Positions 1-63,959 of a stretch of DNA of 64,000 nt are shown here, in pieces. The stretch is from Methanomassiliicoccales archaeon UBA280 (GTDB lineage Archaea > Thermoplasmatota > Thermoplasmata > SG8-5), in the NCBI GenBank assembly GCA_002499085.1, contig DAKD01000016.1, positions 88,880 to 152,879 of the forward strand, given 5' to 3'. A model generated the notes under the pieces. It did no database searches, was not told where the DNA came from, and was given only the letters and a program-made list of their open reading frames with translations. A program made the position numbers and the translations under genes. Position 1 is the first letter of the stretch; every line of letters starts with the position of its first letter.

Positions 1-2
1 TG

Positions 3-740: not shown

Positions 741-758
741 ATAAATGAAGGTAGAACC

Positions 759-3664: not shown

Positions 3665-3715
3665 ACCCTATTCGATGGACAGTTAGAATAGTTATGAAAA
3701 CATTGGAGGTGGTGC

Positions 3716-3898: not shown

Positions 3899-4623
3899 TA
3901 AATTATACGCCTCAATCCCTCAACCATGTTTCTTGCACTTTCCGACGAGATGCCGTATTTATCAGCTCCGTCCCTGGACTCAGCAACTCGGTCCAACACC
4001 GGCTTTATGAATTCATGCTCCGAGAAGAACCGGCCGAGCTGGCCTATGTTCAGGTCCGTTCCGCCCCTGGCCGGATCAATGAGGGCCAGTATATCCGAGT
4101 AATCCTTGATTATCTTCGCCCATTCATGGGTCTGATTCATGCTGGCTCCATGGTCATATCTCCAGCGTCTGTCCCAGGCGGCCTTCGTCTTCATCATCAG
4201 GAGCACAGAGCGGCTCGGGACAGGTATTTCTTGGCCTGCTATCCGTTTCACCTGGACGTTGCCCGTGATTATTCCCAGGTCGAAAGAGCCGTGGGAGCCC
4301 TCGAAAACGTCAGAGCCTCGGGATGCAAAGTCTATCGATACCTTTCCGGCCGGCGTATCCTTGAACACGGATGCCGAAGCTGATAGCCCGTCCTGGTCTG
4401 GGTGGAACCCGTGATTGTCCAGAAGGTGCTTCCTCAGGCTCGCCTTCGTCCTGTTGTTCGTCACTAGGTCGATGTCCACAGAACCCCAATAGGGATTGTA
4501 AGCATATACGGCCCAACCGCCCACGAGAACGGTCGAGGACTCTGTGAGTTCATCCTCACGTCCGCGCACCCATTCGAAAATGGTCTGGAGCACTCTCAAG
4601 GATTCAACGGCGATGGGTTCCAT
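3895..4623 (-). CDS. minimal nucleotidyltransferase-fold protein, AbiEii-like (type IV TA toxin-like)
   Basis: 242-aa ORF. VLVGGWAVYAYNPYWGSVDIDLV matches the pol-beta NTase signature hG[GS]x9-13DhD of the AbiEii/DUF1814 type. Overlaps the upstream partner gene by 20 nt. Confidence 0.5.
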   Translation of the reverse strand: MEPIAVESLRVLQTIFEWVRGREDELTESSTVLVGGWAVYAYNPYWGSVDIDLVTNNRTKASLRKHLLDNHGFHPDQDGLSASASVFKDTPAGKVSIDFASRGSDVFEGSHGSFDLGIITGNVQVKRIAGQEIPVPSRSVLLMMKTKAAWDRRWRYDHGASMNQTHEWAKIIKDYSDILALIDPARGGTDLNIGQLGRFFSEHEFIKPVLDRVAESRDGADKYGISSESARNMVEGLRRIIY

Positions 4624-18328: not shown

Positions 18329-18527
18329 AACTTTCCCTTCCTTTATATTATTATAAGTCGGCTATAATAGTTTTAATATTTAATATTACCGCTTGCTATT
18401 ATATATGAAACATCTGGCGAAATTGCAGATATTCGCCGACATTCCGGACCAAGGCTGCATGCGGGCTAATCTCAAGGAAACGCCGCTCACGCTGGCTTCA
18501 AATGGCGGCTGTCTTGGGCTTGCCGCT

Positions 18528-31997: not shown

Positions 31998-32200
31998 TCC
32001 AGATTCCTCCTCAAGTTCCGAAGTGCCCGCGTGCATCCGCGCATGCCGGCAATAAATATGCAGCTACATCTGATTTGAGCTATTTAATGTTTGTTGATTA
32101 TATCAAACATATTTATTCTTCATTAAAAGAAAACCCCACACAGGCATCTGCAACGAAACTCTTATCCCCAAGTTGCGGATTGAGGCACGGTGGTCATAGG

Positions 32201-36491: not shown

Positions 36492-39179
36492 ATGAAAACT
36501 TGGAGGAAGGAAGCAAGCCTTCTTTTGGTGGGAATGATGATAATGAGCGGACTGGTAGCCTTCAGCGCGCCAGTGATTGCGGACACACAGGTAGTGAACA
36601 ACAGCTTGGAAGTCGTCTTCAACCCCGCGTTCATGGTTGACGAGCTTGTATGGTCGAAAGACCCGACCGTAAACAACCCCTATAACCTGGGCGAGGGAGA
36701 CGGCATTGACGACGACGCGACCACAGCCGACTCCTGCACACTCAGGATAACGATCAGGAACATCGACGCGGACGCGGCACAGGATTTCTACCTGAACATT
36801 ACACAGTACCAGGCATCGGTCTTCGACTTCAGGGACACTGTAGCTGCAACAGCGGGAGTTCAGGTGTCTGTAGGTCCGGTCGCGATCGCCTCCGGAGCCA
36901 CAGCGAACTTCAATTTTAACTTCGACATCCTGGCGACAAACATACCCCTGGGAACAAGCTCCAACACGCAGATAACGTTCGCATGGGACTACATCGACGC
37001 AGGCGGACCGACAGACGTAACTGGAAACCGCAACGGACACATCTACATCGCATCGATATTCGATAACCCAGCGGAGGACCTCGACGAGCAGCTGCCGAAC
37101 ATGGAAGACGAGAACGATGACGCTGAGTTCGAGGCAGGAGACCTGTTCGAGGAAGCCGAGATGGACCTTCACAACTACGAACTGGGCACGGACAACATCG
37201 ACGATCTGACATGCGTGGTAACAGTTCCGGCATCGAGCGGGATAACCTTCTCCGGTGGCAGGGACACATGCATGATACCCGCCGGCATCAATGTCGGAAC
37301 GACAGCGTCCACCCTCTACAGGGTAGATGTTGCAGCCGGAACGCCCCCGGGCGTTTACACCGGTAGCGCCGACATCACATACACAAGGGCGGACAGCGGC
37401 CTTACAGTCACCGAGAACGACCTTGCGGTCGACTTCGAGGTAGACTTCTCGTTCGACGATGACGACCCAGTGCCGGAAGGCGAACTGTACTCACAGTACC
37501 AGTGCTACGCGACAGGCGTCACTGTGCTCAACTACACCAGGCAGGTGGACTACGTTGCTCCGTATGACATACCCGTCATAGAACAGAGCGACTACACAGA
37601 CCAGACACTCGAGCTTGAAGTCACCATAATCAACAACGGAAACAGCGACCTCTACAACGTCGAGTTCGAACTGGACCCGGCTGGCTGGCCGTACTTTCGG
37701 AACCCACTGTTCTTCTGGGAATCTGCAGGCACTCTTAATTACGACTCTATCAGTGATACTATTGATATCGCTGCTGGCGATTCGATCACGTTCACGATGA
37801 CAGTGTTCGTGGATGCCGCGATTCCGATAGGGGAACACAGGCTCCAGATACTCTACAGGGGCTACTACTTCGACGACGGATCCCTCGGTAACCCGACAGG
37901 GTTCATCGAGACCAACGGCGGAGACGACCTCGAGATACTGTTCAGCATATGGGTGGACGACCCGGTCATACAGTGCCACATATCCGCGATAGACACGACA
38001 GTCACCGACGAGGTCGGCGACAAGGACGACATCAGGGCAGAAACACTCACAATCTCGGTTGTCAACGATGAGGAATACAACTTCATCGACATCACCGCGA
38101 GGGCAGACTTCACGGGAACACCCTGGTACATGCCTGTGATCAACATGGCTGACCCATGGGTCGCAGCGGACAATGCCAACCCGGCAATGCCCCTGGGCGC
38201 ATGGAACGGCGGCGCAACCATGGACCTCGACTTCACCGTCGACACATACCCGACCTTCGTGCCGGACAGGTACCCCTTCTCGCTGGAGATAACCGCAGTC
38301 ATCCAGGAGACACTCGAGATAGTGACAGTGGTCCTCGACTACACGCAGGGCGCGGTCATCGACTTCACAGGATACGGACCTGACATCTACATCACCGGAT
38401 TCACGGCAGAGGACATTGTGCCCGGCGAACCGTTCGAGCTCGTGCTGGAAATCAGGAACGTCGGAGACGACACGCTCAGGGACGTCACCCTCCAGATAGA
38501 CACGGACGGAACCGACGAGTACCCGTGGGACATCGAGCAGGACTTCAAGGAGCAGTTCGACTGGTCCGGCGTATTTGACAACTGGGGCGGCTCAGACGCA
38601 ACCGTCGGACAATCTGGCGGAGTTACCTGGAACGGCGACTTCCCCGAGGACATGTTCTACACTGTCGAGGACCTTGACGTGGACAACATCAGGGAAATCA
38701 TCGAGATCAACCTGTTCATGGACGGCGTCTACTCTGACCCGGCGGCAAGTATAGCGTTGATACACATCTCGGACCTCGCAGCCGGCGCCAACACGACCGT
38801 GACCTTCACCATGATAACGGACAAGGACATGGTCAACGGAAAGCCCTACGACTTCCCAGTGTGGATATGGGGCATCGGAGCTGACGGAGAGGACTACGAG
38901 GCCGAGCGCTGGATAACGGTGCAGACCTCGATCCCAGGCGACTCCTACAACCCGGTTGAGCTGAACTGGTTCGACGCAGGCCTCAAGGCCCTCGCGCTGT
39001 TCCTGTTCTTCATCATCGTGCTGGCAATACTCCTGTTCGTGTACAACATGTTCAAGGGCGAGCCGTACGACGAGGACGAGGAAGACTTCGACTTCGAGGA
39101 CGAGGAACCCTTCGAGCCCGAGACGGAAGCGCCAGGCGACACTCCGGTCGAGAAGAAGGAAGAACTGGTAGAACCGTAA
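36492..39179 (+). CDS. acidic secreted surface protein with C-terminal TM anchor and acidic cytoplasmic tail (candidate S-layer or cell-surface structural protein)
   Basis: Signal peptide MKTWRKEASLLLVGMMIMSGLVAFSAPVIA. 895 aa, D/E/T-rich, beta-rich composition. C-terminal ALALFLFFIIVLAILLFVY followed by a DEDEEDFDFEDEE tail. Strong SD and terminator hairpin. Confidence 0.7.
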   Translation: MKTWRKEASLLLVGMMIMSGLVAFSAPVIADTQVVNNSLEVVFNPAFMVDELVWSKDPTVNNPYNLGEGDGIDDDATTADSCTLRITIRNIDADAAQDFYLNITQYQASVFDFRDTVAATAGVQVSVGPVAIASGATANFNFNFDILATNIPLGTSSNTQITFAWDYIDAGGPTDVTGNRNGHIYIASIFDNPAEDLDEQLPNMEDENDDAEFEAGDLFEEAEMDLHNYELGTDNIDDLTCVVTVPASSGITFSGGRDTCMIPAGINVGTTASTLYRVDVAAGTPPGVYTGSADITYTRADSGLTVTENDLAVDFEVDFSFDDDDPVPEGELYSQYQCYATGVTVLNYTRQVDYVAPYDIPVIEQSDYTDQTLELEVTIINNGNSDLYNVEFELDPAGWPYFRNPLFFWESAGTLNYDSISDTIDIAAGDSITFTMTVFVDAAIPIGEHRLQILYRGYYFDDGSLGNPTGFIETNGGDDLEILFSIWVDDPVIQCHISAIDTTVTDEVGDKDDIRAETLTISVVNDEEYNFIDITARADFTGTPWYMPVINMADPWVAADNANPAMPLGAWNGGATMDLDFTVDTYPTFVPDRYPFSLEITAVIQETLEIVTVVLDYTQGAVIDFTGYGPDIYITGFTAEDIVPGEPFELVLEIRNVGDDTLRDVTLQIDTDGTDEYPWDIEQDFKEQFDWSGVFDNWGGSDATVGQSGGVTWNGDFPEDMFYTVEDLDVDNIREIIEINLFMDGVYSDPAASIALIHISDLAAGANTTVTFTMITDKDMVNGKPYDFPVWIWGIGADGEDYEAERWITVQTSIPGDSYNPVELNWFDAGLKALALFLFFIIVLAILLFVYNMFKGEPYDEDEEDFDFEDEEPFEPETEAPGDTPVEKKEELVEP

Positions 39180-51004: not shown

Positions 51005-52960
51005 ATGACCCGCGCCAAGGAATATGACGAGGCTGTGAACTGGCTTTTTGAGCTCCAGTATTTCGGCATGAAGCTTGGCCTGGACAACACCAGGGCGCTG
51101 CTCTCCGAAATGGGGAACCCCCATGAAAAATTCCCTTCGGTCCATGTCGCCGGAACAAACGGAAAGGGTTCAGTATGCGCTTTCCTCACGGGCATGTTGA
51201 TTGATGCCGGGCTGAAGGTCGGCACCTACACATCTCCGCATCTTTCCGAGTTCGGGGAACGGATTTGCGTGAACGGCTTTCCCATGACCAGGGCCGAGAT
51301 CCTGCGGTCCGTCGGTCAAATAAGGCCGAAGGTCGAAGCCCTTGAAAGGAAAGGGGTGCAGTGCACGTTCTTCGAGGTCACGACATGCATGGCATTCAGG
51401 CAGTTCGCCAGGCGGAAGGTCGACATCGCGGTGGTCGAGGTCGGCATGGGCGGCAGGCTCGATTCCACCAACGTGATAAAGCCCGAGCTCAGCATAATCA
51501 CGAACATATCCAGGGAGCACATGCAGCACCTGGGCGAAACCCTGGCCGAGATAGCTTCCGAGAAGGCAGGCATAATAAAGAGGGGCATTCCCGTCGTATC
51601 GTCTGTCCAGGAGAGGGACGCGGCCAATGTCATTGAGTCAAAAGCCCGGAAATTGAGTGCCAAGCTCTTCAGGATACATGAATCTGCGAAGTGGCGCATA
51701 GAAGCGACCAGCAGCCTCGGTTCGATACTTACTGTTCGGACCAGGGACAATGAATACGGCCCGGTGAGGATTCGGCTTCCGGGCGAGCATCAGGCAGTCA
51801 ATGCCTCGACATCGGTTCTGGCGGCCGAGATACTGGCAGGGAGAGGTTTTTCCATCTCCGGAGAGAACATTCTCAGGGGACTGGAATCGACAAGATGGGC
51901 GGCCCGTCTACAGACTGTCCGTCTGAATCCCGCGGTGATACTTGATGCCACGCACAATCCCGGCGGCGCCGAAGCTCTGGCCGAATTCCTGAAATCCCAT
52001 TTCACAAGGAAGAAGCCGGTCATGGTCATTGCGATGCTGGAGGACAAGGAGGTCGGGCCGGTGGTAAGCCACCTGGAACCTCTTGTCCGGAAGGCAATAG
52101 TCTCCCAATCATCCTATCACAGGCGCATGAAGGCGGATGTGCTGGCATCGAATTTCAAAGGCGTTGCGGTTACCGAAGCGGACCTGCGCAAGGCAACAGA
52201 CCTCGCCATGGCTGCCGCCGGAAAGGACGGAACCGTTTTGATAACAGGGTCCATATTCACGGCGTCGGAGGCTCTTCGGCATCTCGACGAAATCAGAATC
52301 GCCGAGATAGTGCCAATTCTCCAGGAAGCTCACGGGATAGGCGCTTACCCGGGCAGGGATCCCGGGACACCCGGCCCGCCGGCACCGGGCTCCCAGGACC
52401 CGTTCAGGGTACTGATTTCCACAATCCTGTCGCAGCGCACCAAGGATGAGAACACGCATGCGGCGACAGAAGCCCTGTTCTCGAAGTTTGACACACCCGG
52501 CAAACTGGCGCGCGCGAGACCGGAGGACATCGAACCGCTCATCAAATCAGCAGGGTTCTACAGACAGAAGGCCAGAAACATCATCGGCGTGTCCAGGACA
52601 ATCCTGGACAGGTATTCGTCCAAGGTCCCCGCATCTATTGAGGAACTGACGGCCCTGCCCGGCGTGGGGAGGAAAACTGCCAATTGCGTGCTCTCATACG
52701 GATTCGGCCTGCCAGCAATCGCAGTCGACACCCATGTCCACAGGATATGCAATCTCATGGGCCTTGTGAATTCCGAATCACCGGAGGAAACCGAGAACCA
52801 ACTCGGGCTGAAAGTGAGACTTGAATATTGGCATGACATGAACCGGCTGCTTGTCAGGCACGGCCAGACAATATGCTTGCCTGTGAAGCCGAAATGCGGG
52901 AAATGTCCGGTGTCGCATCTCTGCGACAAAGGCATCTATTCCGATTGGCAGTCAAGCTGA
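51005..52960 (+). CDS. folC: folylpolyglutamate synthase/dihydrofolate synthase (FolC, Mur-ligase family) fused in-frame to endonuclease III (Nth, HhH-GPD + 4Fe-4S)
   Basis: N-terminal P-loop HVAGTNGKGSVCAF (Mur ligase). C-terminal PFRVLISTILSQRTKDE, LPGVGRKTANCVL (HhH-GPD), CLPVKPKCGKCPVSHLC (CX6CX2CX5C). No stop between the domains. A possible internal GTG start at IAEIVP. Confidence 0.75.
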   Translation: MTRAKEYDEAVNWLFELQYFGMKLGLDNTRALLSEMGNPHEKFPSVHVAGTNGKGSVCAFLTGMLIDAGLKVGTYTSPHLSEFGERICVNGFPMTRAEILRSVGQIRPKVEALERKGVQCTFFEVTTCMAFRQFARRKVDIAVVEVGMGGRLDSTNVIKPELSIITNISREHMQHLGETLAEIASEKAGIIKRGIPVVSSVQERDAANVIESKARKLSAKLFRIHESAKWRIEATSSLGSILTVRTRDNEYGPVRIRLPGEHQAVNASTSVLAAEILAGRGFSISGENILRGLESTRWAARLQTVRLNPAVILDATHNPGGAEALAEFLKSHFTRKKPVMVIAMLEDKEVGPVVSHLEPLVRKAIVSQSSYHRRMKADVLASNFKGVAVTEADLRKATDLAMAAAGKDGTVLITGSIFTASEALRHLDEIRIAEIVPILQEAHGIGAYPGRDPGTPGPPAPGSQDPFRVLISTILSQRTKDENTHAATEALFSKFDTPGKLARARPEDIEPLIKSAGFYRQKARNIIGVSRTILDRYSSKVPASIEELTALPGVGRKTANCVLSYGFGLPAIAVDTHVHRICNLMGLVNSESPEETENQLGLKVRLEYWHDMNRLLVRHGQTICLPVKPKCGKCPVSHLCDKGIYSDWQSS

Positions 52961-53598
52961 TCAATGAGTTCAGACAGATACCTGGCATTGTCATCATTGC
53001 CCGAGGCCGTGAGCTTATCGAGGCATTTCTTTGCCGCGCCGTACCTCTGCATGTCAAAGAGCAATTTGGCCTTGCAGTACAGGGCATCACGGTCCCGCGG
53101 GTTGATGAGAAGGGCCTTCTCTATCATGGCCAAGGCTTCACCGTGTTTCCCGAGAGACATGAGGGCATTGCTGAGCTTGATGTACGTAACCTCGTTGCCC
53201 ACGGGCCTTCCGCTCTTTAAATCAGCATTTACCAGGCATCCGCTGATAAGGCCTATGAATTCCACCTCCTCCCTGTTGAACTTCAGCTCATCCTCGGCCC
53301 CCAAAATGAGCGGGATCTGCAGGTTTTTCAGTGATTCGTCAACCAGCGGGACCAGCTCTTCAATCGACAACTCTCTGGCCTTGATATTGTCCAGGTATGC
53401 CGCGAGTTTGGACTGGCTTTTCCTCAGCTCGCGTTTGACATCTTCCACTTCCTTGCCGGTATGCCTTTCCAGCAGTGCCCTGTCCCTGCTGTCGGCCCTG
53501 ATCTGCCTCTGGAACTCGAAACCGCATCTAGAACAGGCCTTCAGGTCTGTCTGAACCTCGGCCCCGCAAAGCTCGCATTTCTTCATTGCCATATCCAA
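52936..53598 (-). CDS. zinc-ribbon + TPR-like hypothetical protein
   Basis: N-terminal CELCGAEV...CSRCGFEF zinc ribbon. C-terminal TPR-like helices (GEALAMIEKALLINPRDRDALYCKAKLL). Confidence 0.5.
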   Translation of the reverse strand: MDMAMKKCELCGAEVQTDLKACSRCGFEFQRQIRADSRDRALLERHTGKEVEDVKRELRKSQSKLAAYLDNIKARELSIEELVPLVDESLKNLQIPLILGAEDELKFNREEVEFIGLISGCLVNADLKSGRPVGNEVTYIKLSNALMSLGKHGEALAMIEKALLINPRDRDALYCKAKLLFDMQRYGAAKKCLDKLTASGNDDNARYLSELIDQLDCQSE

Positions 53599-53718
53599 TC
53601 GTCAAGCTAATAGATAAAGGTTGGTCAACTCCCGAAATTCCCTCCGGGCACCAAATCTCCCCGGAATTATCAGTTTTTACGCAATTTGGCGTTATATTTA
53701 TAGTTGGACCAGCGACAG

Positions 53719-53755
53719 CTATATATATATTGATACTATTAATTGGAGCGAGAGG
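53719..53755 (+). promoter_or_regulatory. TATA-like promoter for the pilus-locus first gene
   Basis: gctatatatatattg at 53719-53733, about 25-35 nt upstream of ATG 53756 (short-leader transcript typical of archaea). Purine-rich ggagcgagagg precedes the ATG. Confidence 0.35.
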
Positions 53756-54814
53756 ATGTTGAGACCGAATTTTTTCCCTGTGCGCAGGCGCATCAATGAA
53801 ATCAGCCCCGGAACACGTGAGGCTGTGCGCATCAGACCCCGCATAAGGTGGGAGGAAGAGGGTGTGGCTTCCACAGTAGGGACAATCATGGCCCTGATGG
53901 TATTTCTGGCGTTTCTTTCAATGTTCACAAGCCAATATGTTCCAGTCTGGATGGAGGAGAACGAAGCCTCGCACATGAACGAGGCCTACGGCCAGTTTGC
54001 TGCCATGAAACAGGCAGTTGACATGCAGATACTGGCCGGCACGATACAGGGGACCTCGACCGTGCAGATGTTCTCGCCTATTAAATTGGGGGCAGAGGGA
54101 ATACCGATGTTCGCCTCGCCAACCCCGGGATACCTCACGCTTTCCCGTTCGGCCAGCTATGACAATGTGAGCTTCAGCTTCAACACCAGCGCTTCCATTG
54201 TCGACTATAACATGAACACGGGCGGCACGATCAAGCTGAAGGCGGAAAACAGGTACTATATCCAACAGGAGCTTGCCTTCGAGAACGATGCCATCATCCT
54301 CAAGCAGCCGGACGGCCAGTACATGAAAGCCATGCCCCAGCTTCGAATCACGCCCACGGGGACGGTGACTGCCACTGGCGGCATTGTATGCCAACTTTCC
54401 TACACGCAGGTCGACCTTCGCGGAGACGACGCCAATTACATAGGCTTCGGCACACGGGGCGTTTCCACGCTCATGAAGTCAACCACAACCACAACATTCA
54501 CAAACCTGACAGGGGAATCCGCACCGGGCGTGCCCGCCACTCATCCCTATCTATCGATAGTCCATACGGGTTATTACGAAAGGGCCTGGAACTCAAGCCT
54601 GAACCAGACGCTCTCAAGCGCCGGTCTGAGATGGGGCTTCGACATAACAAATGCGAACACGGATTACACTATCGTTTCCACACTGAAATCACCGCCCGGC
54701 TCGATCGAAAAGATGTGGGAAGTGCGCGTTTTGATAAAGACAGACGTAATCTCAAGCTTCTCGCTGACCGTGGCAAACATCGAGATATCCACCTCGGAAC
54801 TGGGGGCTGCGTAG
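53756..54814 (+). CDS. N-terminally membrane-anchored pilin-like/pilus-associated protein (class III signal-peptide-like TM followed by beta-rich domain)
   Basis: Charged N-region then RWEEEGVASTVGTIMALMVFLAFLSMF hydrophobic helix, then a Thr/Ser-rich beta domain. Its stop abuts the start of the ATPase gene (TAG ATG). Confidence 0.45.
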   Translation: MLRPNFFPVRRRINEISPGTREAVRIRPRIRWEEEGVASTVGTIMALMVFLAFLSMFTSQYVPVWMEENEASHMNEAYGQFAAMKQAVDMQILAGTIQGTSTVQMFSPIKLGAEGIPMFASPTPGYLTLSRSASYDNVSFSFNTSASIVDYNMNTGGTIKLKAENRYYIQQELAFENDAIILKQPDGQYMKAMPQLRITPTGTVTATGGIVCQLSYTQVDLRGDDANYIGFGTRGVSTLMKSTTTTTFTNLTGESAPGVPATHPYLSIVHTGYYERAWNSSLNQTLSSAGLRWGFDITNANTDYTIVSTLKSPPGSIEKMWEVRVLIKTDVISSFSLTVANIEISTSELGAA

Positions 54815-56506
54815 ATGGGAATGAAGCAGTCGATGATGTCAAAGATGCTAAGGAGCAAATCCCAGACGCTCAAAGTCAAGGTTCCGAAGGGCGTGATAGC
54901 CCTCGAGAAGAAATGGAAGGACGGCAAAGGCTCGCCGCTCTGCCCCATACCGGACATCACAACCCCGGGCATAGATGAGATAGAGATTTACACCATAAAG
55001 GAACCCTACAGCTATGCCAGGATAGTGTTTGACAACAACAACTCTGAATTCGTGTACCAGGTTCATGAACCCTCGCTCAACGAAGCCGAAGCGGAAGTCC
55101 TCAGGCTGATCAAGGATTCGCTCCAAAGGACGCTCGAGTATGAGCTGGACAAAATGGCCATTAAGGACAAGAGCGAGTACCTGAAGAAAAGCGTTGAGAG
55201 CTTCATAAAGAGCAGAGAGATGCGGCTCGAACCCGTGACAATCCAGAAGATTCACTATTATATCGCCAGGGACTTTGTCGGGTATGGTTCTGTCGACTCG
55301 CTCATGGGTGACCAGTACATCGAAGACATATCGTGCGACGGGACAAACGTACCGCTTTTCATTTATCACCAGAAATACGAGTCGATAAAGACAGACATCA
55401 AGTTCCAGGAGGAGAAGGACCTGAACAGCTTCGTCATCTACCTGGGACAGAGATGCGGCAAGCAGGTGTCCGTGTCTGCCCCCATCCTGGACGGGACCAC
55501 CGTCGAAGGGCACAGAGTACAGGCCACCTACGGGACCGAGGTCACCACAAGGGGCTCATCCTTCACAATCAGGCGTTACAAGGAGAAACCCTTCACTCCG
55601 GTTGAACTTATCACGTACGGCACGGCATCGCCGGAAATGGTTGCCTATGCCTGGATGCTTGTCGAGCATGGCCAATCCATGATCATTGCCGGCGGGACAG
55701 CAAGCGGCAAAACAGCCACGCTAAACGCGCTCGCGCTGTTCATCAGGCCCGGTGCCAAGGTCATCACGATGGAGGACACCAGGGAGATAAACCTGCCTCA
55801 CGAGAACTGGATACCCGGAACAACCAGGACCGGTGTCGGAGAGCGCGACAAAAGCGGAAAGGCCGCCGGCGAGATAAACATGTTCGAGCTTGTCAGGGCA
55901 GCGCTGAGGCAGAGGCCGGAATACATCATTGTCGGAGAAGTGAGGGGCGCGGAGACCGCCACCATGTTCCAGGCGATGGCAACAGGCCACACCACATATT
56001 CCACGATGCACGCGGACTCTGTCAAGAGCATGATCAACAGGCTTGAGAACCCGCCCATCAGCACGCCGAGGATTCTGCTCACATCCCTGAACTTCGTCAT
56101 CATCCAGAAGCATGTCAGGGTCGGCGACAGCATTGTCAGGCGCATAGTCCAGATTGTAGAACTGGTGGGATTCGAGCCCGAGACCAACGAGGTCATAACG
56201 AACATGGTCTACGAATGGAACCAGCGCACAGATGCGTTCATCTACAAGGGGCACAGCTTCATTCTTGACCAGATAATGGAAATGAAGAACATGACCCACG
56301 AGGAGATGAACACCGAGATGAAGAGGCGCGTCGACATCGTGAAGTACCTGGTGGAGAAGGACATCACCGACTTCAAGCTCATTTCCAACCTGGTTGTCGC
56401 CTATTACAAGGAACCCATGGAAACGATACAGAAGATAAGGGACGAGATGGGATGGATTACGGAAGAGAGCCTCGTGACCGACGGGGGTGCGAAGATTGGC
56501 GCATGA
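54815..56506 (+). CDS. type IV pilus / Tad-like secretion ATPase (FlaI/TadA/VirB11 superfamily), paralog 1
   Basis: Walker A IIAGGTASGKTATLNAL. Asp box IITMEDTREINLP. Walker B YIIVGEVRGAE. His box MATGHTTYSTMHADS. FlaI-like N-terminal domain of about 200 aa. Confidence 0.85.
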   Translation: MGMKQSMMSKMLRSKSQTLKVKVPKGVIALEKKWKDGKGSPLCPIPDITTPGIDEIEIYTIKEPYSYARIVFDNNNSEFVYQVHEPSLNEAEAEVLRLIKDSLQRTLEYELDKMAIKDKSEYLKKSVESFIKSREMRLEPVTIQKIHYYIARDFVGYGSVDSLMGDQYIEDISCDGTNVPLFIYHQKYESIKTDIKFQEEKDLNSFVIYLGQRCGKQVSVSAPILDGTTVEGHRVQATYGTEVTTRGSSFTIRRYKEKPFTPVELITYGTASPEMVAYAWMLVEHGQSMIIAGGTASGKTATLNALALFIRPGAKVITMEDTREINLPHENWIPGTTRTGVGERDKSGKAAGEINMFELVRAALRQRPEYIIVGEVRGAETATMFQAMATGHTTYSTMHADSVKSMINRLENPPISTPRILLTSLNFVIIQKHVRVGDSIVRRIVQIVELVGFEPETNEVITNMVYEWNQRTDAFIYKGHSFILDQIMEMKNMTHEEMNTEMKRRVDIVKYLVEKDITDFKLISNLVVAYYKEPMETIQKIRDEMGWITEESLVTDGGAKIGA

Positions 56507-57509
56507 GACACAGGACACCTTCAAGAAGCTCGAGACGAAGGACAGGCACCTCAAGACGAAGAAATCAAGGGAGGAAGCGGTCGCAGAACCGCATCTGATA
56601 AGGCTGCCCAAGGGCGCGGTTCCCGAGTACATCAAACTCTCTCCGTTCGAAGAGATGAGCTGGCGCGTGATGGGCAATTATGTCAAGTCCAAGTACACGG
56701 AGGACCAGGAGCTCGAGGAAAACCTCATGAAGGCCCACATGAAGATAAGGCCGGAGGAGTACATGGCCTTTGTCTACATGGCTGCAGCGGTCCTGTTCGG
56801 GGTCGCGCTCGTGGCCGGCATAGCCATCGCCCTGGTCTTCACTTTTCTGATGGACATGATGTTCATAGGCATTCTTCTGGCAATAGCGATGCCCATAGGC
56901 CTTCCCATCATGGCGCTTGTTGTGCTGAAGGGCTCGCCCGGCGGAAAGGCCAAGGCAAGGGCCAGGAACATCGACAAGAGAATCTCCTCCGCAATGAGCT
57001 TCATATCCGCAATGGCCTCGGCGAACGTGCCCGTTGACATGGTGTTCAAGGAGCTCTCAAGACAGCCTGTGTACGGGGAGATCCAGAAGGAGGCCGAATG
57101 GATAACCAGGGACACGGAACTGCTGGGCATCGATATCCTTACGGCCATCAAGAGGGGCGCGATGCGTTCCCCATCACAGAAATTCCAGGATTTCCTTCAG
57201 GGCGTGGTCACGACCTCGACATCAGGAGGCCAGCTCAAGCCCTATTTCCTGCTCAAAGCGACAGAGTACGAGAAAGAGAACAAACTCATACTCAAGAGCA
57301 CCATGGAAACGCTTTCCATGCTCGGAGAAAGCTACGTCACTGTGGTGGTGGCGTTCCCGCTGTTCCTGGTGGTCATATTGGCCATCATGGCCATCATCGG
57401 CGGGAATTCGGCCAACACCCTGATGATTCTGTACGCTGTCGTGGGATTGATGATCCCCCTCGCGCAGTTCGGATTCATCTTCGTGGTGTGGAACATAGGC
57501 CAGGAGTGA
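56487..57509 (+). CDS. T2SS-F domain membrane platform protein (TadB/FlaJ-half-like), 1 of 2
   Basis: 340-aa ORF overlapping the ATPase stop. TM helices FVYMAAAVLFGVALVAGIAIALVF, GILLAIAMPIGLPIMALVVL, VVVAFPLFLVVILAIMAIIGG. A single T2SS-F-like cytoplasmic domain. Confidence 0.65.
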   Translation: MRRLAHETQDTFKKLETKDRHLKTKKSREEAVAEPHLIRLPKGAVPEYIKLSPFEEMSWRVMGNYVKSKYTEDQELEENLMKAHMKIRPEEYMAFVYMAAAVLFGVALVAGIAIALVFTFLMDMMFIGILLAIAMPIGLPIMALVVLKGSPGGKAKARARNIDKRISSAMSFISAMASANVPVDMVFKELSRQPVYGEIQKEAEWITRDTELLGIDILTAIKRGAMRSPSQKFQDFLQGVVTTSTSGGQLKPYFLLKATEYEKENKLILKSTMETLSMLGESYVTVVVAFPLFLVVILAIMAIIGGNSANTLMILYAVVGLMIPLAQFGFIFVVWNIGQE

Positions 57510-57513
57510 TAAA

Positions 57514-58626
57514 ATGGCAATGAGCAAGGATGAGATGAAGAAGGTCGTGATGGCCCAGAAACGGGATTACACCAGGCTCATCCTTGCCGTGAGCGGCGCC
57601 GTGTTCGCCCTGTTCCTGGTATTCGCCATGTTGAACCTCACGGACCAGGTTGACTGGTCACTGAAACAGCTCCCCACCACCGACCTTAACGAGAACGGCG
57701 TCATCGACAGGCCATACGAAGTGGGTCTGGACACCAACGAGAACGGCATCATAGACTCGGGGGACGTGTTCGACGGCCATGATTCCGGGGACCCTTGGGA
57801 CTTGGACGGGGACGGCGATAGAACCGAGATGGACGGGATCCCCGACCAAGCGCAATCGCCTTTGCAGCGGATGCTCAATTTCATTTTCATAGGTCTGGGC
57901 TTCATGATAGGTCCGTATGCGTTCTACTCCTCGAAAAAGCAGCAGAACATCAAGGAAATCGAGAGAAGGCTTCCGGACTTCCTCAGAGATGTGGCCGAAG
58001 CCGGAAGGTTCGGCATGACGCTTGCCGACGCGATAGTGGTCGCGTCCTCGGGCAGATACGGCGACCTCACCCCGGAGATTAAGAAGATGGCCGCCCAGAT
58101 CGAATGGGGCGTCACCGCCGGGGAAACCCTGAGGCTGTTCTCGGAGCGGGTGAATACCCCGCTGGTCAAGAGAGTGGTGACGATTGTCGTGAAGGCGAGC
58201 GACGCAGGCGGCAGCGTTGCGGACGTTCTCTCGATGGTCGCGCATGACACCAAGGAGGAGCAGTTCTCGGCGGCCGAGAGGAGGCTCCAGATGAGCACAT
58301 ATCTCGCTGTCATCTACATCTCTTTCTTCGTGTTCCTGGTGACCATAATCATCCTGAACCTCACTTTCCTGCCCAAGATAAGGATTGCCGGAACCAATGT
58401 GGCCGCGGCAGCGGCCGCGGCAGGCATCGAGGGCGGAGTGGGCGGGGCATCGCTGGACGTTAGCGCGATTCCGATGATACAGATCGCGTTCTTCCTTGCC
58501 GTCATGGCGCACGCCATCGGCGACGGCATCATGGCCGGCGTCCTGCAGACAGGAAGCGTGGCCGACGGCATGCGTCACAGCGTTATCATGCTCATTATGG
58601 GATTCCTAATACTGACGGTGATGTAG
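57514..58626 (+). CDS. T2SS-F domain membrane platform protein (TadC/FlaJ-half-like), 2 of 2, with extracytoplasmic EF-hand/dockerin-like Ca-binding insertion
   Basis: T2SS-F-like segment VKASDAGGSVADVLSMVAHDTKEEQFSAAERRLQMSTYLAVIYISFFVF. Insertion DLNENGVIDRPYEVGLDTNENGIIDSGDVFDGHDSGDPWDLDGDGDRTEMDGIPD (57679-57850) after the first TM helix. Confidence 0.65.
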   Translation: MAMSKDEMKKVVMAQKRDYTRLILAVSGAVFALFLVFAMLNLTDQVDWSLKQLPTTDLNENGVIDRPYEVGLDTNENGIIDSGDVFDGHDSGDPWDLDGDGDRTEMDGIPDQAQSPLQRMLNFIFIGLGFMIGPYAFYSSKKQQNIKEIERRLPDFLRDVAEAGRFGMTLADAIVVASSGRYGDLTPEIKKMAAQIEWGVTAGETLRLFSERVNTPLVKRVVTIVVKASDAGGSVADVLSMVAHDTKEEQFSAAERRLQMSTYLAVIYISFFVFLVTIIILNLTFLPKIRIAGTNVAAAAAAAGIEGGVGGASLDVSAIPMIQIAFFLAVMAHAIGDGIMAGVLQTGSVADGMRHSVIMLIMGFLILTVM

Positions 58627-58628
58627 AA

Positions 58629-60326
58629 ATGGCGGACGCAGCGGCTGAGATGCAGGAAGAGACCCTTGATGTCAGGAAGAAGGGGCCGGGCGCACTCGGA
58701 AACATGAAGAAATCCTACATGAAGAAGCTTGCGGGCAAGAAGGCCATGAAGATAGTGGCGCCCGTCGGCTCCCAGCAAGCCGAAAGGAAGCTGGTCGAAG
58801 GCGTCACGACAATACCGAAGATAGTCGAGAAGCACATCAGGGAGATCGAAATACAGCCTGTCATCGACGGCTATTCCTATGTCAGAATCAAATATGACAA
58901 TATCTCCAACGATTACATGTACGAGGTCATTGAACCGAGGCTCACGGAGGAAGAGGAGGACATCCTCGAGGTTCTCAAGGAGACGCTGATTGACTCGCTC
59001 GAGATGCTTGTGGACGCGAAAAAGGAGGAGAAGGAAGAATATCTCAGGAAAGCCATAGAGACCCTCCTGGCCGACATAGGTGTGAGCCTGAACCCGATCT
59101 CAAGGGAGCGCGTGACCTATTACATACTCCGCGACTTCCTCAGGTACGGAGCCATTGACGTTGCGATGATCGACCCCCAGGTGGAGGACTGCTCCTGCGA
59201 CGGCATGAACGTCCCGCTGTACATATTCCACAGGAAGTACGGCTCGATCCAGTCAAATCTCAGATTCAAGACATCCGAGGAGCTGGACGGCTTCGTCGTA
59301 TGGCTTGCCCAGCGCTGCGGCAAGCACATCTCCGTGGCAGAGCCCATGCTTGACGCCACGATACCGGACGGCTCGAGGCTGCAGGCGACTCTGGGGACGC
59401 ATGTCACAAAGCGCGGCTCGTCGTTCACCATCAGGAGGTTCAGGGAGAACCCGTTCACGCCCCTGGACATGATACGGTTCAAAACAATGTCCCTGGACAT
59501 GATGGCCTATCTGTGGCTCTGCATAGAGAACGGCAAGTCCATTCTCGTGTGCGGAGGCACTGCGAGCGGAAAGACCACGACTCTCAATGCAGTCCTGCTG
59601 TTCATCCCGCCGCAGATGAAGATAGTCAGCATCGAGGACACAAGGGAACTTAACTTACCGCATGAGAACTGGGTGCCCCTGCTCACCAGGCACGGCTTCG
59701 GGGGCAAGGACGCCTCCGGGAAAGCAGCCGGAGAGATTGACATGTTCGAGCTTCTCACGGCCGCGCTGAGGCAGCGCCCCCAGTACATGATGGTCGGTGA
59801 GGTCAGAGGCTCGGAAGCCTATGTCGTCTTCCAGGCCATGGCGACGGGCAAGAGCGCTTACACAACTTTCCACGCGGAAAGCGTCCAGGCCATGGTTCAC
59901 AGGATGGAGCAGCCTCCCATCGAGGTTCCCCGCGCCTTGCTGAGCGCCCTCAACATGGTTCTGATACAGGCCCAGGTCAAGGTGGGCACGAAGATGACCA
60001 GGCGCGTCAAATCGCTGACTGAGGTGGTGGGCATTGACCCGGACAACAACGAGCTGATAACAAATTCGGTCTATGTTTGGAACCCTGCGGACGACACCTT
60101 CAACTACTCAGGCCACAGCTACATCTACGAGCAGATAGCCGTGACAAAGGGCTGGAGCCAGCGCGAGATGATGCGAGAGGTGAAACGCCGCACAAGGCTT
60201 CTCCAGTACCTGCGGAGCAAGAACGTCAGCTACAAGAACATGGCCAAGTACGTCTCGGCCTATTACAAGGACCCGGACAAGGTCATGAGGGAAGTCGACG
60301 ACTCGGGATTCGTGGCCGAGGAATAG
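58629..60326 (+). CDS. type IV pilus / Tad-like secretion ATPase (FlaI/TadA superfamily), paralog 2
   Basis: Walker A LVCGGTASGKTTTLNAV. Asp box IVSIEDTRELNLP. Walker B YMMVGEVRGSEA. His box MATGKSAYTTFHAES. Collinear with paralog 1 (motifs shared, sequences diverged). Confidence 0.85.
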   Translation: MADAAAEMQEETLDVRKKGPGALGNMKKSYMKKLAGKKAMKIVAPVGSQQAERKLVEGVTTIPKIVEKHIREIEIQPVIDGYSYVRIKYDNISNDYMYEVIEPRLTEEEEDILEVLKETLIDSLEMLVDAKKEEKEEYLRKAIETLLADIGVSLNPISRERVTYYILRDFLRYGAIDVAMIDPQVEDCSCDGMNVPLYIFHRKYGSIQSNLRFKTSEELDGFVVWLAQRCGKHISVAEPMLDATIPDGSRLQATLGTHVTKRGSSFTIRRFRENPFTPLDMIRFKTMSLDMMAYLWLCIENGKSILVCGGTASGKTTTLNAVLLFIPPQMKIVSIEDTRELNLPHENWVPLLTRHGFGGKDASGKAAGEIDMFELLTAALRQRPQYMMVGEVRGSEAYVVFQAMATGKSAYTTFHAESVQAMVHRMEQPPIEVPRALLSALNMVLIQAQVKVGTKMTRRVKSLTEVVGIDPDNNELITNSVYVWNPADDTFNYSGHSYIYEQIAVTKGWSQREMMREVKRRTRLLQYLRSKNVSYKNMAKYVSAYYKDPDKVMREVDDSGFVAEE

Positions 60327-60419
60327 ACATAACTTTTACAGATGGTTGAGAACCAAATTCTGTGCGGGAGTCGGCAGACTGCCCTCCCCAGTTTAGATAA
60401 TCCATAAAAATGGTAAAGG

Positions 60420-60452
60420 TGGGAGCCGGTATCCGGCTCCCATTCTCGTTTA
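60420..60452. terminator. hairpin between convergent genes (possible bidirectional terminator)
   Basis: gggagccgg tat ccggctccc followed by attctcgttt. Lies between the ATPase stop (60326) and the stop of the minus-strand gene (60450). Confidence 0.4.
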
Positions 60453-63400
60453 CTGTTGGGGCTGGTCGCCGCCCGGCTCGCCCGGCCTTCTGACGATCTT
60501 CTTTATCGGCTTCCGTATGACGCGTCTGACTTCGCCGCCTGCCTGGGGCTGAGAGAAGTCATAGTTGCATATCGGGCATATTTTCTCGTTGGCGTTGACT
60601 TCCATGCCGCAGGACGGACAGCCCTTCTTTCCGGGCGTTCCCTGAGGTGCGGCCTGCTGGGCCGGAACAGGCGCAGCGGGTGCGGGCTGAGGCCGCGGCT
60701 GCTGCTGTGCGGGCTGCGGTGCGGGTTGGGCCGGTGCCTGCTGGGGTTTCGGCTGGGGCTGGGCAGCCGGCTTCGCCTCCTGCTTGGGCGGGAGCTTGCC
60801 CTCCGGCTTCTTGGGCGTCGTGTCTCCCATGACGCTGCCGCACTTGTGGCATATCTTGGCCGTGACCGAGTTCTCCATCTCGCAGACAGGGCAGGGCTTC
60901 GAGCCCATGCGCTTCATCTCCTCCTCCTCCTTCAACCACTGGTCGAAGGTGATGAATGTGGGTTTCGATGCCCACCAGGCCTGGAACTCCGTCTCCGTGA
61001 ACTCCGCGCCGAGTTCCTTCTTTGCATCGTTGCGGAACTTCCTGACAATGTCATCATACTGGCGCTTCATCTTCGCCTCGTAGTCGTCAAGGTCCTCAGT
61101 GCCGACAGTGAATTCCGTGCCGCAGTCCGGACAGTTCTTCACGTCGATGGGCACCCAGGCTCCGCACACGCTGCACTTGGCGACCTCGGTCTCGAACTCC
61201 ACGCCGCACTTCGGGCACTTCTTGGCGCCCTCGGGGATGAATGCGCCGCATTCACCGCACTGCACAGTCTTTCCGAGTCCGACGAAGTACAGGTAGAGCG
61301 TTATGCCGACGATTATCGCGACGACGATGATTATTATCAGTATTATTATCCACCAGGGGAATATCACCGAGGGGTCTATCCTGAACCAGCTGGTTGCCGA
61401 ATTTACCCCCTCGCCGGACACGGTCACTGTGTAGTTGCCGGTGGCTGAGACCTGGACGGTTGTGCTGTAGAATCCTCCTGACTGCGATGTGACGTATACC
61501 GGGTCCATGCCCTGCACGGTCACTGTCACAGGGATGTCAGCCACTCCCAGGCTCGGGCTGTCCTGCCTGACGATATATCCGGATATCTGGATGGTTTGGA
61601 CCTCTCCTTCCTTGTAAATCTGCGTCCATTCGGTGCCGATTGCTATCGGCGATGGAAGCGCAATGGTTGCCATCAGCGGCGGTATTGTGGCTGTCACGGA
61701 GAAAGACACATTGTTGTTCCTCTCGTTCCTTTCCTCGATATTGCCTATGAGCGGGGTAACGCCGTCGTAATCGATCTCGTCGGTGTTGTTGAGCTCCGTG
61801 TCCACGAATATGAACAGGCTGCGCTGTCCCGCGTCGACGCCAGTGCAGCTGATCGTGAAAGTCTCAATCTCTCCGGCAACCAGTGTCGCAACCGTTGTGT
61901 TTCCTATCCTGCCGATCGGCGTCCTGCGGCCCTGGTTCCAGGCCGTCCTCGAGCTGTTGTAATTGTCCATGCTCGAATACACGTCAATGGCCACTTTGCT
62001 GGCTATCGAGAGGCCCCTGTTAATCACAGTCACGTTGAGGCTGAAAGCTGTGTTGCCTGTGATTTCGGTTGCGCCGTTTGCCAACTCAACCTCCGACGGC
62101 TCCAGGTCGGGCCTGCTGTCCCGCACTGTAAGGGTATCGCTCATCGTGTTGCTCACGAGGCCCGGGTTGCCGTATGCTATCGCGTTGATGGTGCGCACTT
62201 CCTCTCTTGCGTTGGTCAGCACTTTCCAGGTGCATGTGGCGTAGGCATAGTTGCCCGTGCTTATGCTCGGGATGGCCGCGGATGTGTTTATGAGGTTGGC
62301 AGTTATCGGGGCACCATCGTAGAATCTGACATACACGCTGCCGGCATGCAGGTCGCCCAGGTTGCGGACCATTGCCCTCAGCGTGACTGTCGTCCTGTTG
62401 TCTGTGCTGTTCAGCACGGTGCCGCCGCCGTTGGCGATCTGGACCAGGTTCGTGCCTTCCACCACGTCCAGGGCCTGAATGATCAGGTCAGCGTCGTCAT
62501 AGACGCGCAGGCTGAGAGGCCACATGGTGTTGTTGTTGTTGTTCTCGTTCACCTCGGATATGCCGTTGAGCGGGTCGATGTAAGCCTCTATCATGTAAGT
62601 CCCGTTGTCCTCGAAGGTTACTGGTATTGAGACGACCGTCGGCATTGTCGGGTTCGCCGGGACCTCGGTTGCGTTCGCGCTTCCGAGCCATTCGCCGTTC
62701 GCGTAGAACCAGACCATCACGCCAGTCGCGTTTATGTCTCCCTGGTTCCAGATATTGGCCGAGATCGTGAACTCCTGGTTCGTCTGCGGGTAGGTCCGGG
62801 AGGACCAGACGTCCGTGTACTGGAGCATCGCAAGGTCAGCCTGGGATGTCACCTCTATCCAGGTGTAGTTGTCGTTGTTTGTCTCGTCCTGTTCCGGTAT
62901 TGATCCCGGCGCAGGGTCAACCTTCACTGTGATGTTGTGCATTCCTATCTGGGTGACGCTCAGCCAGGTGTAGGGGAACGAGATCGGCCAGTTGCCGCCC
63001 GGGGCGAGCGTGCTTATGGTCTCCGTGTAAATCTGAGTGGCCTGGCCGTTGAATATGTCCTCGAACCTGACAACTATTCCGTTCGCTGTGGCATCGCCGA
63101 TGTTGGATATCGTGCTGTTTATCAGCACCGTGTTGCCGCGGCCCACCGCGGACCCTGTATCGAGAGGCCATACCGTGAGCGGCGGGTCCAGGTCCGGAAG
63201 CACATTCCTGAGGTAGACGCTCCTCTTGGCTGTCGCATCGCTGGTTCCCATCGACGGGAATGCGGCAAGCCCGAGCCCGGTCGTGTCTGTGTGCAATATT
63301 CCTGAGAACAGCTGGTACTCCGTGTAGAGTGTGTACAGATTGTAATGCGATTCCACGACCTCCGAGGCTGCAGGGCTGTAGTAGAGATAGTCGCTCAGCG

Positions 63401-63959
63401 CGTACGTGAGGTACACGCCTGCGGAGTTCGTGGTACCGGCCCTGTTGAGCATCGTCCCCAGCCCGGTGTACTGCGTCGTTATCCAGACATCCGCGTTCGG
63501 GAGCGTCTTGGCCGGTGTCTGGCCGTTGTAGACAGTCACCTCTGCCCACCTGTAGTTCCATACCTTGGCCGAATCCATCGGCTCGACCTTGAAGTTGGGC
63601 GAAAGCGGCGAGTAGCAGCCTATCAGCCTCACTTCGGTTGTGCCGTACAGGTCATTGAGGTTTCGACCGAACATGGTGCTCCAGGCATTCAGCCTGACGT
63701 TCGTGCCGGCCTCGTCGGCCGTGTCGAACTGCCCGCCTATCTCGCTCCTGTTGAATAACACCTGGACATTGTCCTTCGCCAGTATATCTATCACGTTAGT
63801 CGTGGTGGAGTCTATCATTGTGAATGCCGCGTTATCTTCGAGCGTGATCATCATGTACAGGCTGTTCTGGGTTCTCAGGTCCACATTGTCCAGAATGAGC
63901 TGGCCAGAGTCCCTCACCGTTATATGGAAGGGCGCCGCTCCGGTGGGGGACATCATCAT
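60450..63959 (-). CDS. single-pass membrane protein: large CARDB-repeat ectodomain, TM helix, cytoplasmic tail with four zinc-ribbon motifs and PQ-rich low-complexity region (N-terminus probably beyond window)
   Basis: TM WWIIILIIIIVVAIIVGITLYLYFVG. Cytoplasmic CGECG..CPKCG, CSVCG..CPDCG, CPVCE..CHKCG, CPSCG..CPICN. PQPKPQQAPAQPAPQPAQQQPRPQP stretch. Ectodomain repeats with a CARDB-like pattern (ADLAMLQYTDV...FTISANIWNQGDINATGVMVWFYANG). No signal peptide at the listed start, so the ORF likely continues upstream. Confidence 0.7.
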   Translation of the reverse strand: MMMSPTGAAPFHITVRDSGQLILDNVDLRTQNSLYMMITLEDNAAFTMIDSTTTNVIDILAKDNVQVLFNRSEIGGQFDTADEAGTNVRLNAWSTMFGRNLNDLYGTTEVRLIGCYSPLSPNFKVEPMDSAKVWNYRWAEVTVYNGQTPAKTLPNADVWITTQYTGLGTMLNRAGTTNSAGVYLTYALSDYLYYSPAASEVVESHYNLYTLYTEYQLFSGILHTDTTGLGLAAFPSMGTSDATAKRSVYLRNVLPDLDPPLTVWPLDTGSAVGRGNTVLINSTISNIGDATANGIVVRFEDIFNGQATQIYTETISTLAPGGNWPISFPYTWLSVTQIGMHNITVKVDPAPGSIPEQDETNNDNYTWIEVTSQADLAMLQYTDVWSSRTYPQTNQEFTISANIWNQGDINATGVMVWFYANGEWLGSANATEVPANPTMPTVVSIPVTFEDNGTYMIEAYIDPLNGISEVNENNNNNTMWPLSLRVYDDADLIIQALDVVEGTNLVQIANGGGTVLNSTDNRTTVTLRAMVRNLGDLHAGSVYVRFYDGAPITANLINTSAAIPSISTGNYAYATCTWKVLTNAREEVRTINAIAYGNPGLVSNTMSDTLTVRDSRPDLEPSEVELANGATEITGNTAFSLNVTVINRGLSIASKVAIDVYSSMDNYNSSRTAWNQGRRTPIGRIGNTTVATLVAGEIETFTISCTGVDAGQRSLFIFVDTELNNTDEIDYDGVTPLIGNIEERNERNNNVSFSVTATIPPLMATIALPSPIAIGTEWTQIYKEGEVQTIQISGYIVRQDSPSLGVADIPVTVTVQGMDPVYVTSQSGGFYSTTVQVSATGNYTVTVSGEGVNSATSWFRIDPSVIFPWWIIILIIIIVVAIIVGITLYLYFVGLGKTVQCGECGAFIPEGAKKCPKCGVEFETEVAKCSVCGAWVPIDVKNCPDCGTEFTVGTEDLDDYEAKMKRQYDDIVRKFRNDAKKELGAEFTETEFQAWWASKPTFITFDQWLKEEEEMKRMGSKPCPVCEMENSVTAKICHKCGSVMGDTTPKKPEGKLPPKQEAKPAAQPQPKPQQAPAQPAPQPAQQQPRPQPAPAAPVPAQQAAPQGTPGKKGCPSCGMEVNANEKICPICNYDFSQPQAGGEVRRVIRKPIKKIVRRPGEPGGDQPQQ

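Follow-up and report, generated by a model that had tools for sequence, protein, structure and literature searches.

Two secretion ATPases and a split platform in a conserved type-IV-pilus-like operon of Thermoplasmata

Archaeal pilus and archaellum operons have long been thought to carry a single multifunctional ATPase. What kind of machine is encoded by an operon in which two such ATPases bracket a platform protein divided into two genes, and what could the second ATPase be for? This question is raised by a locus in a stretch of 64,000 nucleotides (nt) of contig DAKD01000016.1 from Methanomassiliicoccales archaeon UBA280, the whole of which is referred to here as the window. Five genes on the plus strand follow each other at 53756-60326 with next to no spacing. 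They encode a pilin-like protein (PIL), a first secretion ATPase (A1), the two halves of a platform (M1 and M2) and a second secretion ATPase (A2). A preliminary description of this locus had called it Tad-like, had taken its layout as a departure from known archaeal pilus and archaellum loci and had considered two opposing motors. In this study, we show that the five genes form one operon encoding a type-IV-pilus-like machine. It is very probably the assembly machinery of a Thermoplasmata-type pilus like that encoded by the CdiP operon of Cuniculiplasma divulgatum, a confidence that concerns the identity of the machine and does not extend to what A1 and A2 each do.

The junctions between the genes were read from the sequence. 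The ATG of A1 directly abuts the TAG stop codon of PIL. With the GTG at 56487 as the start of M1, this gene shares 20 nt with A1; with the TTG at 56496, the start used by a public gene call, it shares 11 nt. Four nt separate M1 from M2 and two nt separate M2 from A2. PIL likely starts at the ATG at 53756, in agreement with the public gene call, its maximal open reading frame (ORF) beginning at 53621. All five genes are present with the domain content previously ascribed to them (Pfam, NCBIfam), and the central picture of one operon, with two full-length FlaI/PilB-type ATPases flanking a platform of two single-domain genes, is confirmed. Among the junctions given in the preliminary description, the TAG-ATG contact, the 20-nt overlap (with the GTG start) and the 4-nt gap between M1 and M2 stand, but the gap between M2 and A2 had been put at 4 nt and is 2 nt. 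The bounds of 53719-60452 were slightly off as well, the remaining description being accurate: 53719 is not a gene start, and at 60450-60452 a convergent minus-strand gene stops, not A2, which ends at 60326. The assignment of A2 to a separate downstream system is ruled out by its 2-nt gap to M2; what follows A2 is a convergent gene, as here, or PIL.

The two ATPases are 48% identical over 549 amino acids (aa) and both contain the Pfam T2SSE domain (A1, E 3e-36; A2, E 1.2e-34). Their best NCBIfam match is the FlaI model, with 413.5 bits for A1 and 431.9 bits for A2, which misses the cut-off of 550. A1 and A2 reach 143.6 and 142.1 bits, respectively, with the TadA model (cut-off 373), and 51.0 and 44.2 bits with the PilT family model (cut-off 319). 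PilB3_C is matched by A2 with 38.6 bits, above the cut-off of 27, and by A1 with 25.5 bits, just under it. The best solved relative of both is afGspE of Archaeoglobus fulgidus (2OAP; 418 bits for A1, 433 bits for A2), followed at lower scores by Sulfolobus FlaI (267 and 312 bits) and CpaF (136-138 bits). Both proteins, about 565 aa long, retain full N-terminal domains and are colinear with afGspE and FlaI. By curated thresholds neither ATPase is of the PilT, TadA or FlaI type, and by score both are nearest to euryarchaeal afGspE.

M1 and M2 each carry one Pfam T2SSF domain (E 2.3e-12 and 1.3e-17). On the FlaJ model of NCBIfam, which has 555 positions, M1 covers positions 4-243 and M2 positions 317-542. 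Since they match successive halves of FlaJ, the platform is cut between its two T2SSF domains. M2 has a membrane segment of its own at the N-terminus. The NCBIfam matches of both proteins are confined to the archaeal FlaJ, UpsF and BasF models, and no TadB or TadC model was matched. The earlier labels Tad and TadB/TadC-like are thus not borne out, neither by the platform genes nor by the ATPases with their 142-144 bits against the TadA cut-off of 373. A frameshift or an assembly artefact as the cause of the split is ruled out by 53 of 53 complete loci from different species (see below) and by four independent assemblies of the same sequence; the membrane segment that M2 has of its own speaks against it as well.

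Residues ~50-105 of M2 (57661-57828) form an acidic insertion that follows the first membrane span. It contains the EF-hand-like loops DLNENGVID (aa 57) and DTNENGIID (aa 73) and a DLDGDGD run. Out of 60 orthologues of M2 only 16 have the EF-hand-like motif, and these belong without exception to the closest species. This suggests a lineage-specific, possibly calcium-binding extracytoplasmic loop.

An archaellum locus, or a bacterial-type Tad locus gained by transfer, could be read from the fact that FlaI is the best model for both ATPases and from a platform split as in TadB and TadC. The tests made here contradict both. Besides the missed FlaI and TadA cut-offs and the lack of a TadB or TadC match, no KaiC/FlaH, archaellin, FlaF/G or A24 prepilin peptidase was found among 32 window ORFs (mostly of at least 150 aa) scanned against Pfam, in line with what had been noted for the window before. 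We also calculated a neighbour-joining (NJ) tree from 116 A1- and A2-type sequences, 130 diverse representatives drawn from a search of 1.84 billion proteins, and afGspE, SaFlaI and CpaF. In this tree both ATPases lie with the euryarchaeal afGspE-like ATPases, apart from SaFlaI and CpaF. We regard an archaellum or a transferred Tad locus as extremely improbable.

Is the arrangement peculiar to this genome? A scan of one genome per GTDB species gave 62 loci, whose ORFs were classed by BLAST against the five window proteins; identical protein sequences also occur on metagenome contigs. The complete core is present in 53 of these, always in the order A1-M1-M2-A2, and the other nine are cut by contig ends. 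Neither a fused platform nor a single-ATPase version was found among the 53 complete loci. They come from species-level genomes of Methanomassiliicoccales-related archaea, Saliniplasma, Proteinoplasmatales and Methanomethylophilaceae; the closest named relatives are metagenome-assembled genomes (MAGs) of Thermoplasmata and Methanomassiliicoccales.

Moreover, the four-gene core has a published counterpart. The CdiP operon of C. divulgatum carries genes for two ATPases, named CdiPE1 and CdiPE2, and a platform split into an N-terminal half, CdiPFa, and a C-terminal half, CdiPFb (ISME J 2025, PMC12448462). Its authors called the two ATPases unique among archaeal operons and left the second one 'enigmatic' (PMC12448462). 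M1 is 34% identical to CdiPFa (323 aa, E 9e-47) and M2 is 30% identical to CdiPFb (229 aa, E 3e-28), the concatenated CdiPFa/b sequence having been recovered from the machine-read supplement text of PMC12448462, in which small errors are possible. Cuniculiplasma-like loci (L067, L069 and L071, including that of a Thermoplasmataceae MAG) read ATPase (~525 aa)-T2SSF-T2SSF-ATPase (~529 aa). M1 is 36% identical to the Fa protein of L067, and one group of these loci has proteins 88% identical to CdiPFa. In BLAST comparisons the first ATPase of Thermoplasmatales scores 30 to 39 bits higher to A1 than to A2, and the second 24 to 60 bits higher to A2 than to A1; A1 and A2 are the counterparts by position of CdiPE1 and CdiPE2, and for their orthology the basis is the metagenome loci of the Cuniculiplasma-like kind rather than the type strain. 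Domain content, gene order, the homology of M1 and M2 to CdiPFa and CdiPFb, and the published CdiP operon are the grounds on which we assign the machine to the CdiP-like pili. The preliminary description, in contrast, had claimed a layout that departs from what is known. This claim fails, because the arrangement is the standard of the lineage and has been published for a relative; as far as the four-gene core is concerned, it is essentially the common, already described operon.

The ATPase pair is also old. Across the loci, A1 and A2 of the same genome share 43-52% of their residues, from which it follows that the two copies are not being homogenised. A recent tandem duplication or gene conversion is ruled out by the same values. 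In the NJ tree the A1 and A2 families are each monophyletic with 100% bootstrap. A1 and the first ATPase of Thermoplasmatales (E1) come together in 73% of the bootstraps, and E1 and the second (E2), as would be seen after an independent duplication in each order, in only 5%. To judge from gene content and order, the design with two ATPases and a split platform is of ancient origin and has been conserved throughout the class Thermoplasmata.

Even though both ATPases have been kept, they have not changed alike. In an alignment of 53 A1 and 63 A2 orthologues, both families have GGTASGKT as Walker A, EDTRE.NLPHENW as Asp box and VGEVRG as Walker B, together with the His box, and 121 columns are invariant across both. 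Because of these conserved catalytic motifs, A1 and A2 are both expected to hydrolyse ATP. At 16 positions the two families are fixed differently. Here afGspE, FlaI and CpaF agree with A2 in 21 cases and with A1 in 8. Three of the fixed changes of A1 fall into one motif, DA.LPDGSR, which is conserved in the superfamily and reads DGT..EGHR in A1. Furthermore, out of 150 diverse relatives, 104 have a better score with A2 than with A1. Since the outgroups favour the A2 state and most relatives score higher to A2, A2 is, by its residues, the conservative paralogue that keeps the ancestral state and A1 is the derived copy. Two paralogues that both appear catalytically intact, one of them clearly derived, argue for selection of both copies in a non-redundant role.

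Which role this might be is less clear. A1 and A2 may be antagonists: A2 would probably extend and the derived A1 probably retract, as a pair similar to PilB and PilT that arose independently in archaea. The catalytic motifs kept in both paralogues and their joint retention in every complete locus would fit such a pair, and the fixed changes of A1 in a superfamily-conserved motif suggest a new function. There is a bacterial precedent, and the same analogy to extension and retraction has been put forward for CdiPE1 and CdiPE2 (PMC12448462). However, neither ATPase is PilT-like: their scores of 51 and 44 bits fall short of the cut-off of 319, and both have full N-terminal domains. A2, which had previously been considered as a retraction-type ATPase, reaches only the lower of these scores and is the more conservative, PilB/FlaI-like copy. 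Nor does retraction call for a second motor. CpaF in Caulobacter is a single ATPase doing both extension and retraction, which counts against two opposing motors. One ATPase can do both jobs also in the case of AapE, according to published work. Cells of C. divulgatum, which has the homologous operon, were found to adhere, but no twitching was seen (PMC12448462). We consider antagonistic motors unlikely.

A1 and A2 could instead build a single engine on M1 and M2, either as a mixed hexamer or with A1 as an obligate co-motor of A2, like PilU for PilT. Their strict co-occurrence, equal length and equal domain layout are compatible with such an engine. So are the platform genes, which are translationally coupled on either side, and the two different platform halves, which offer two non-equivalent docking surfaces. 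Yet an identity of 43-52% is low for interchangeable positions in one ring, and the close single-ATPase relatives L073 and L074 use the same kind of split platform. A composite motor is likewise a doubtful explanation. The broader proposal, namely that A1 and A2 are an antagonistic or otherwise non-redundant motor pair that originated independently of PilB/PilT and was kept across Thermoplasmata, is made here tentatively and with low confidence.

The first gene of the operon points to a pilus as well. The N-terminus of PIL is basic and is followed by a class-III-signal-like motif, EEG/VASTVGTIMALMVFLAFLSMF, which fits the archaeal class III signal pattern. In about 45 orthologues the motif G-V-A-[ST]-[TV]-[VI]-G-T-I-[MF] is nearly invariant, against an overall and ectodomain identity of 26-79%. 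An AlphaFold2 model based on 43 homologues (predicted local distance difference test, pLDDT, 86.7) has an N-terminal helix of 62 residues (37-98) and then a beta-rich domain, which is the general layout of pilins. Pfam DUF7289, on which a literature search returned nothing, is reached by homologues of PIL and not by the PIL of the window itself. The label 'pilin-like' is reasonable because of the class-III-like motif, the helix-plus-beta model and the DUF7289 homologues. Of the 62 loci, 27 have PIL as the next gene upstream of A1 and 19 as the next gene downstream of A2. We propose that PIL is a minor pilin of the DUF7289 group, or a subunit of that group which primes assembly. No second convincing candidate for a class III signal, no CdiPB-like gene and no small major pilin were found within the window.

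The missing small major pilin would also fit an apparatus other than an adhesive pilus, which might serve secretion, surface display or DNA uptake, for example for giant neighbouring surface proteins. In 34 of the 62 loci the operon has large CARDB and adhesin-like neighbours, a homologue of the CARDB protein encoded next to A2 being found in convergent orientation no more than 2.5 kb from A2. A protein of 1871 aa with a weak Pilin_N match is encoded further downstream in L001. But the neighbouring CARDB protein, 1851 aa long, has an ordinary N-terminal signal and a membrane span, not a class III motif, and the giant CARDB protein is absent from the Thermoplasmatales loci. In addition, the homologous machinery of C. 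divulgatum goes with a solved helical pilus of a small pilin that is encoded remotely (PMC12448462). A secretion, display or uptake apparatus seems rather improbable to us, less likely still than either proposal on the two motors.

For a CdiP-like pilus, the working of the machine can be sketched after other type IV filament machines. M1 and M2 would pair in the membrane and rebuild one two-domain platform, and a hexameric ATPase, made of one or both paralogues, would dock on its cytoplasmic face. ATP hydrolysis would drive the platform to lift peptidase-processed pilins from the membrane into the base of the filament. The major pilin and the prepilin peptidase would be encoded elsewhere, as in C. 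divulgatum. PIL, with its almost invariant N-terminal helix, would most likely have its place at the platform, either as a minor pilin or to prime assembly. At low confidence, A1 and A2 may divide labour on one shared platform, where A2 could be the canonical polymerisation motor and A1 could have taken over a derived job, such as depolymerisation, priming or the handling of another substrate.

Several observations weigh against this reading. The window holds neither a major pilin nor a prepilin peptidase, so filament formation by this organism rests on inference. The structural matches of PIL to pilins are weak, the fold has no confident solved relative, and processing and incorporation of PIL into a filament are putative. 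Activity, oligomeric state and direction of A1 and A2 are putative as well. In the NJ tree, A2 and the second ATPase of Thermoplasmatales come together in 18% of the bootstraps, a weak placement, and the deep branches are very short (0.003-0.03), so that the tree does not tell in which order A1, A2, E2 and the relatives with one ATPase branched off at depth. Two such relatives were found in Thermoplasmatota. L073 has a single A1-like ATPase of 705 aa and two T2SSF genes; in L074, genes for DUF7289 and DUF7266 come before that of a single A2-like ATPase of 1063 aa, which is followed by a T2SSF gene and a T2SSF protein of 814 aa. Because these single-ATPase relatives exist, one A1-like and one A2-like, the pair could stem from recruitment out of a paralogous system and not from a tandem duplication.

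A third Thermoplasmatota locus, L075, reads ATPase-T2SSF-T2SSF-ATPase and then carries a PIL homologue. L073, L074 and L075 could help to date the origin of the second ATPase.

The features of the operon and its flanks are listed in Table 1. Two TATA-like, AT-rich stretches precede PIL, TTATATTTATAG at 53692-53703 and TATATATATATT at 53720-53731, and the purine-rich GGAGCGAGAGG (53745-53755) lies immediately 5' of its ATG. A scan for bacterial sigma-70 promoters, which does not cover archaeal promoters, gave no more sites than in shuffled sequence. Downstream, the convergent A2 and CARDB genes are separated by a spacer of 123 nt with a predicted fold of -45.1 kcal/mol, within which the hairpin at 60421-60441 lies. 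It is a possible transcript end for both genes. A terminator scan, made for bacteria and not applicable to archaea, did not report this hairpin and found no more sites in the region than in shuffled sequence.

Table 1. Positions of the operon genes and flanking features in the window
Feature	Position	Strand	Description
Putative promoter and translation-start region	53692..53755	+	Inferred from sequence reading
PIL	53756..54814	+	352 aa, pilin-like protein
A1	54815..56506	+	563-aa FlaI/PilB-type secretion ATPase
M1	56487..57509	+	~340 aa, N-terminal half of FlaJ/PilC-type platform, one T2SSF domain
M2	57514..58626	+	370 aa, C-terminal half of platform, one T2SSF domain
A2	58629..60326	+	565-aa FlaI/PilB-type secretion ATPase
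Hairpin GGGAGCCGG-TAT-CCGGCTCCC	60421..60441	.	Perfect 9-bp GC-rich hairpin, read from sequence
CARDB surface protein	60450..63959	-	C-terminal 1169 aa of 1851 aa; Pfam CARDB E 3e-29, DZR/zinc-ribbon families

The full CARDB gene lies at 11822-17377 in L001. In the 1851-aa protein the N-terminal signal comes with CARDB-type repeats over about 1500 aa and a single membrane span at residues 1551-1578. Its cytoplasmic tail holds several zinc ribbons, which is unusual for a surface protein, and is P/Q-rich at the end. By its position it is a possible adhesin or accessory component of the machine. Past the right end of the window and downstream of this gene, L001 encodes at 17498-21698 a 1009-aa protein with Peptidase_M14 and Peptidase_C11 domains and the 1871-aa CARDB protein; the weak match of the latter to archaeal Pilin_N makes it a possible giant surface protein with a class III signal near the operon.

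On the other side, divergent from PIL, the minus strand encodes at 52936-53598 a protein of 220 aa, which begins with a zinc ribbon, has TPR repeats towards its C-terminus and is kept at this position in the closest relatives only. In a single plus-strand ORF of 651 aa at 51005-52960, a Mur ligase part similar to folylpolyglutamate synthase is combined with a DNA glycosylase domain of the HhH-GPD (endonuclease III-like) type (Pfam). The window region is rich in adhesin-like genes. Very large predicted surface proteins are encoded at 11843-18328 (minus strand; 2161 aa, beta-helix/NosD, lectin-like), 18528-32036 (minus strand; 4502 aa, Big_5, MAM-like, CarboxypepD_reg) and 36492-39179 (plus strand; 895 aa, CARDB). 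At the left end, positions 1-2000 have a G+C content of 0.46, compared to 0.51-0.60 over the remaining window, and a gene of the phage-integrase family at 2208-3380 lies beside ORFs with no Pfam match; an integrated element may thus have its edge in positions 1-4000. A search of the window for tRNA genes gave none.

The locus itself is a further example of a known, poorly understood machine rather than a new kind of system. Its analysis shows that the two-ATPase layout of C. divulgatum is no outlier. It is fixed in at least 53 species-level genomes and is found in loci of the Thermoplasmatales type, too. What is new is how widespread and how old the design is, and also the asymmetry of A1 and A2, which offers concrete residues for mutation, DGT..EGHR of A1 versus DA.LPDGSR of A2. 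If A1 and A2 were indeed non-redundant, they would include the first dedicated second pilus motor in Archaea.

Among known systems the CdiP operon stands closest. Common to both are two FlaI/AapE-like ATPases, a platform in an N-half and a C-half gene, and the order ATPase-Fa-Fb-ATPase, which was read in the Cuniculiplasma-like loci. First and second ATPases correspond by BLAST, and the major pilin lies outside the operon in CdiP, none being found in the window. The two differ in lineage, CdiP belonging to Thermoplasmatales and the window to Methanomassiliicoccales-related MAGs, and their proteins are only ~30-43% identical. The window operon includes a DUF7289-type pilin-like gene and has a giant CARDB neighbour, both lacking in the Cuniculiplasma-like loci, and the EF-hand-like insertion of its M2 is not a feature of CdiP. 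For CdiP a filament has been observed, whereas the machine of the window is known here from its genes.

The pili of euryarchaeal clade 2, or system 2, such as PilB3C3 and PilB4C4 of Haloferax volcanii (PMC4858521), share afGspE/PilB3-like ATPases with PilB3_C. They often have two tadC-like genes and large adhesin-like neighbours, and their signature minor pilin (arCOG02911), which bears a class III signal, is long and all-beta. In contrast, they typically have one ATPase per locus, and the haloarchaeal ATPases carry long extra N-terminal regions. Two tadC-like genes are found in many pilus loci of euryarchaeal clades 1 and 2, and a pilus locus of Aciduliprofundum boonei contains two ATPases that are distinct from each other (Makarova et al. 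2016, PMC4858521).

Two adjacent platform genes with a single T2SSF domain each are likewise present in the Epd pili of Methanococcus maripaludis and in bacterial Tad systems, where they are best explained by gene fission (PMC6668835). These systems combine one assembly ATPase with a second NTPase of the FlaH or TadZ type, not two FlaI-type paralogues. From Tad the window system differs further, as its ATPases are far under the TadA cut-off and it has no secretin in the window; M1 and M2 follow the domain order of FlaJ, whereas in Tad it is TadC that reportedly corresponds to the N-half and TadB to the C-half. Bacterial PilB and PilT, finally, are likewise two paralogous hexameric secretion ATPases serving one pilus machine. 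PilT, however, lacks the N-terminal domain and belongs to a distinct family, whereas A1 and A2 are both full length and 48% identical. PilB/PilT pili retract, whereas neither retraction nor twitching has been shown in C. divulgatum, the one relative tested.

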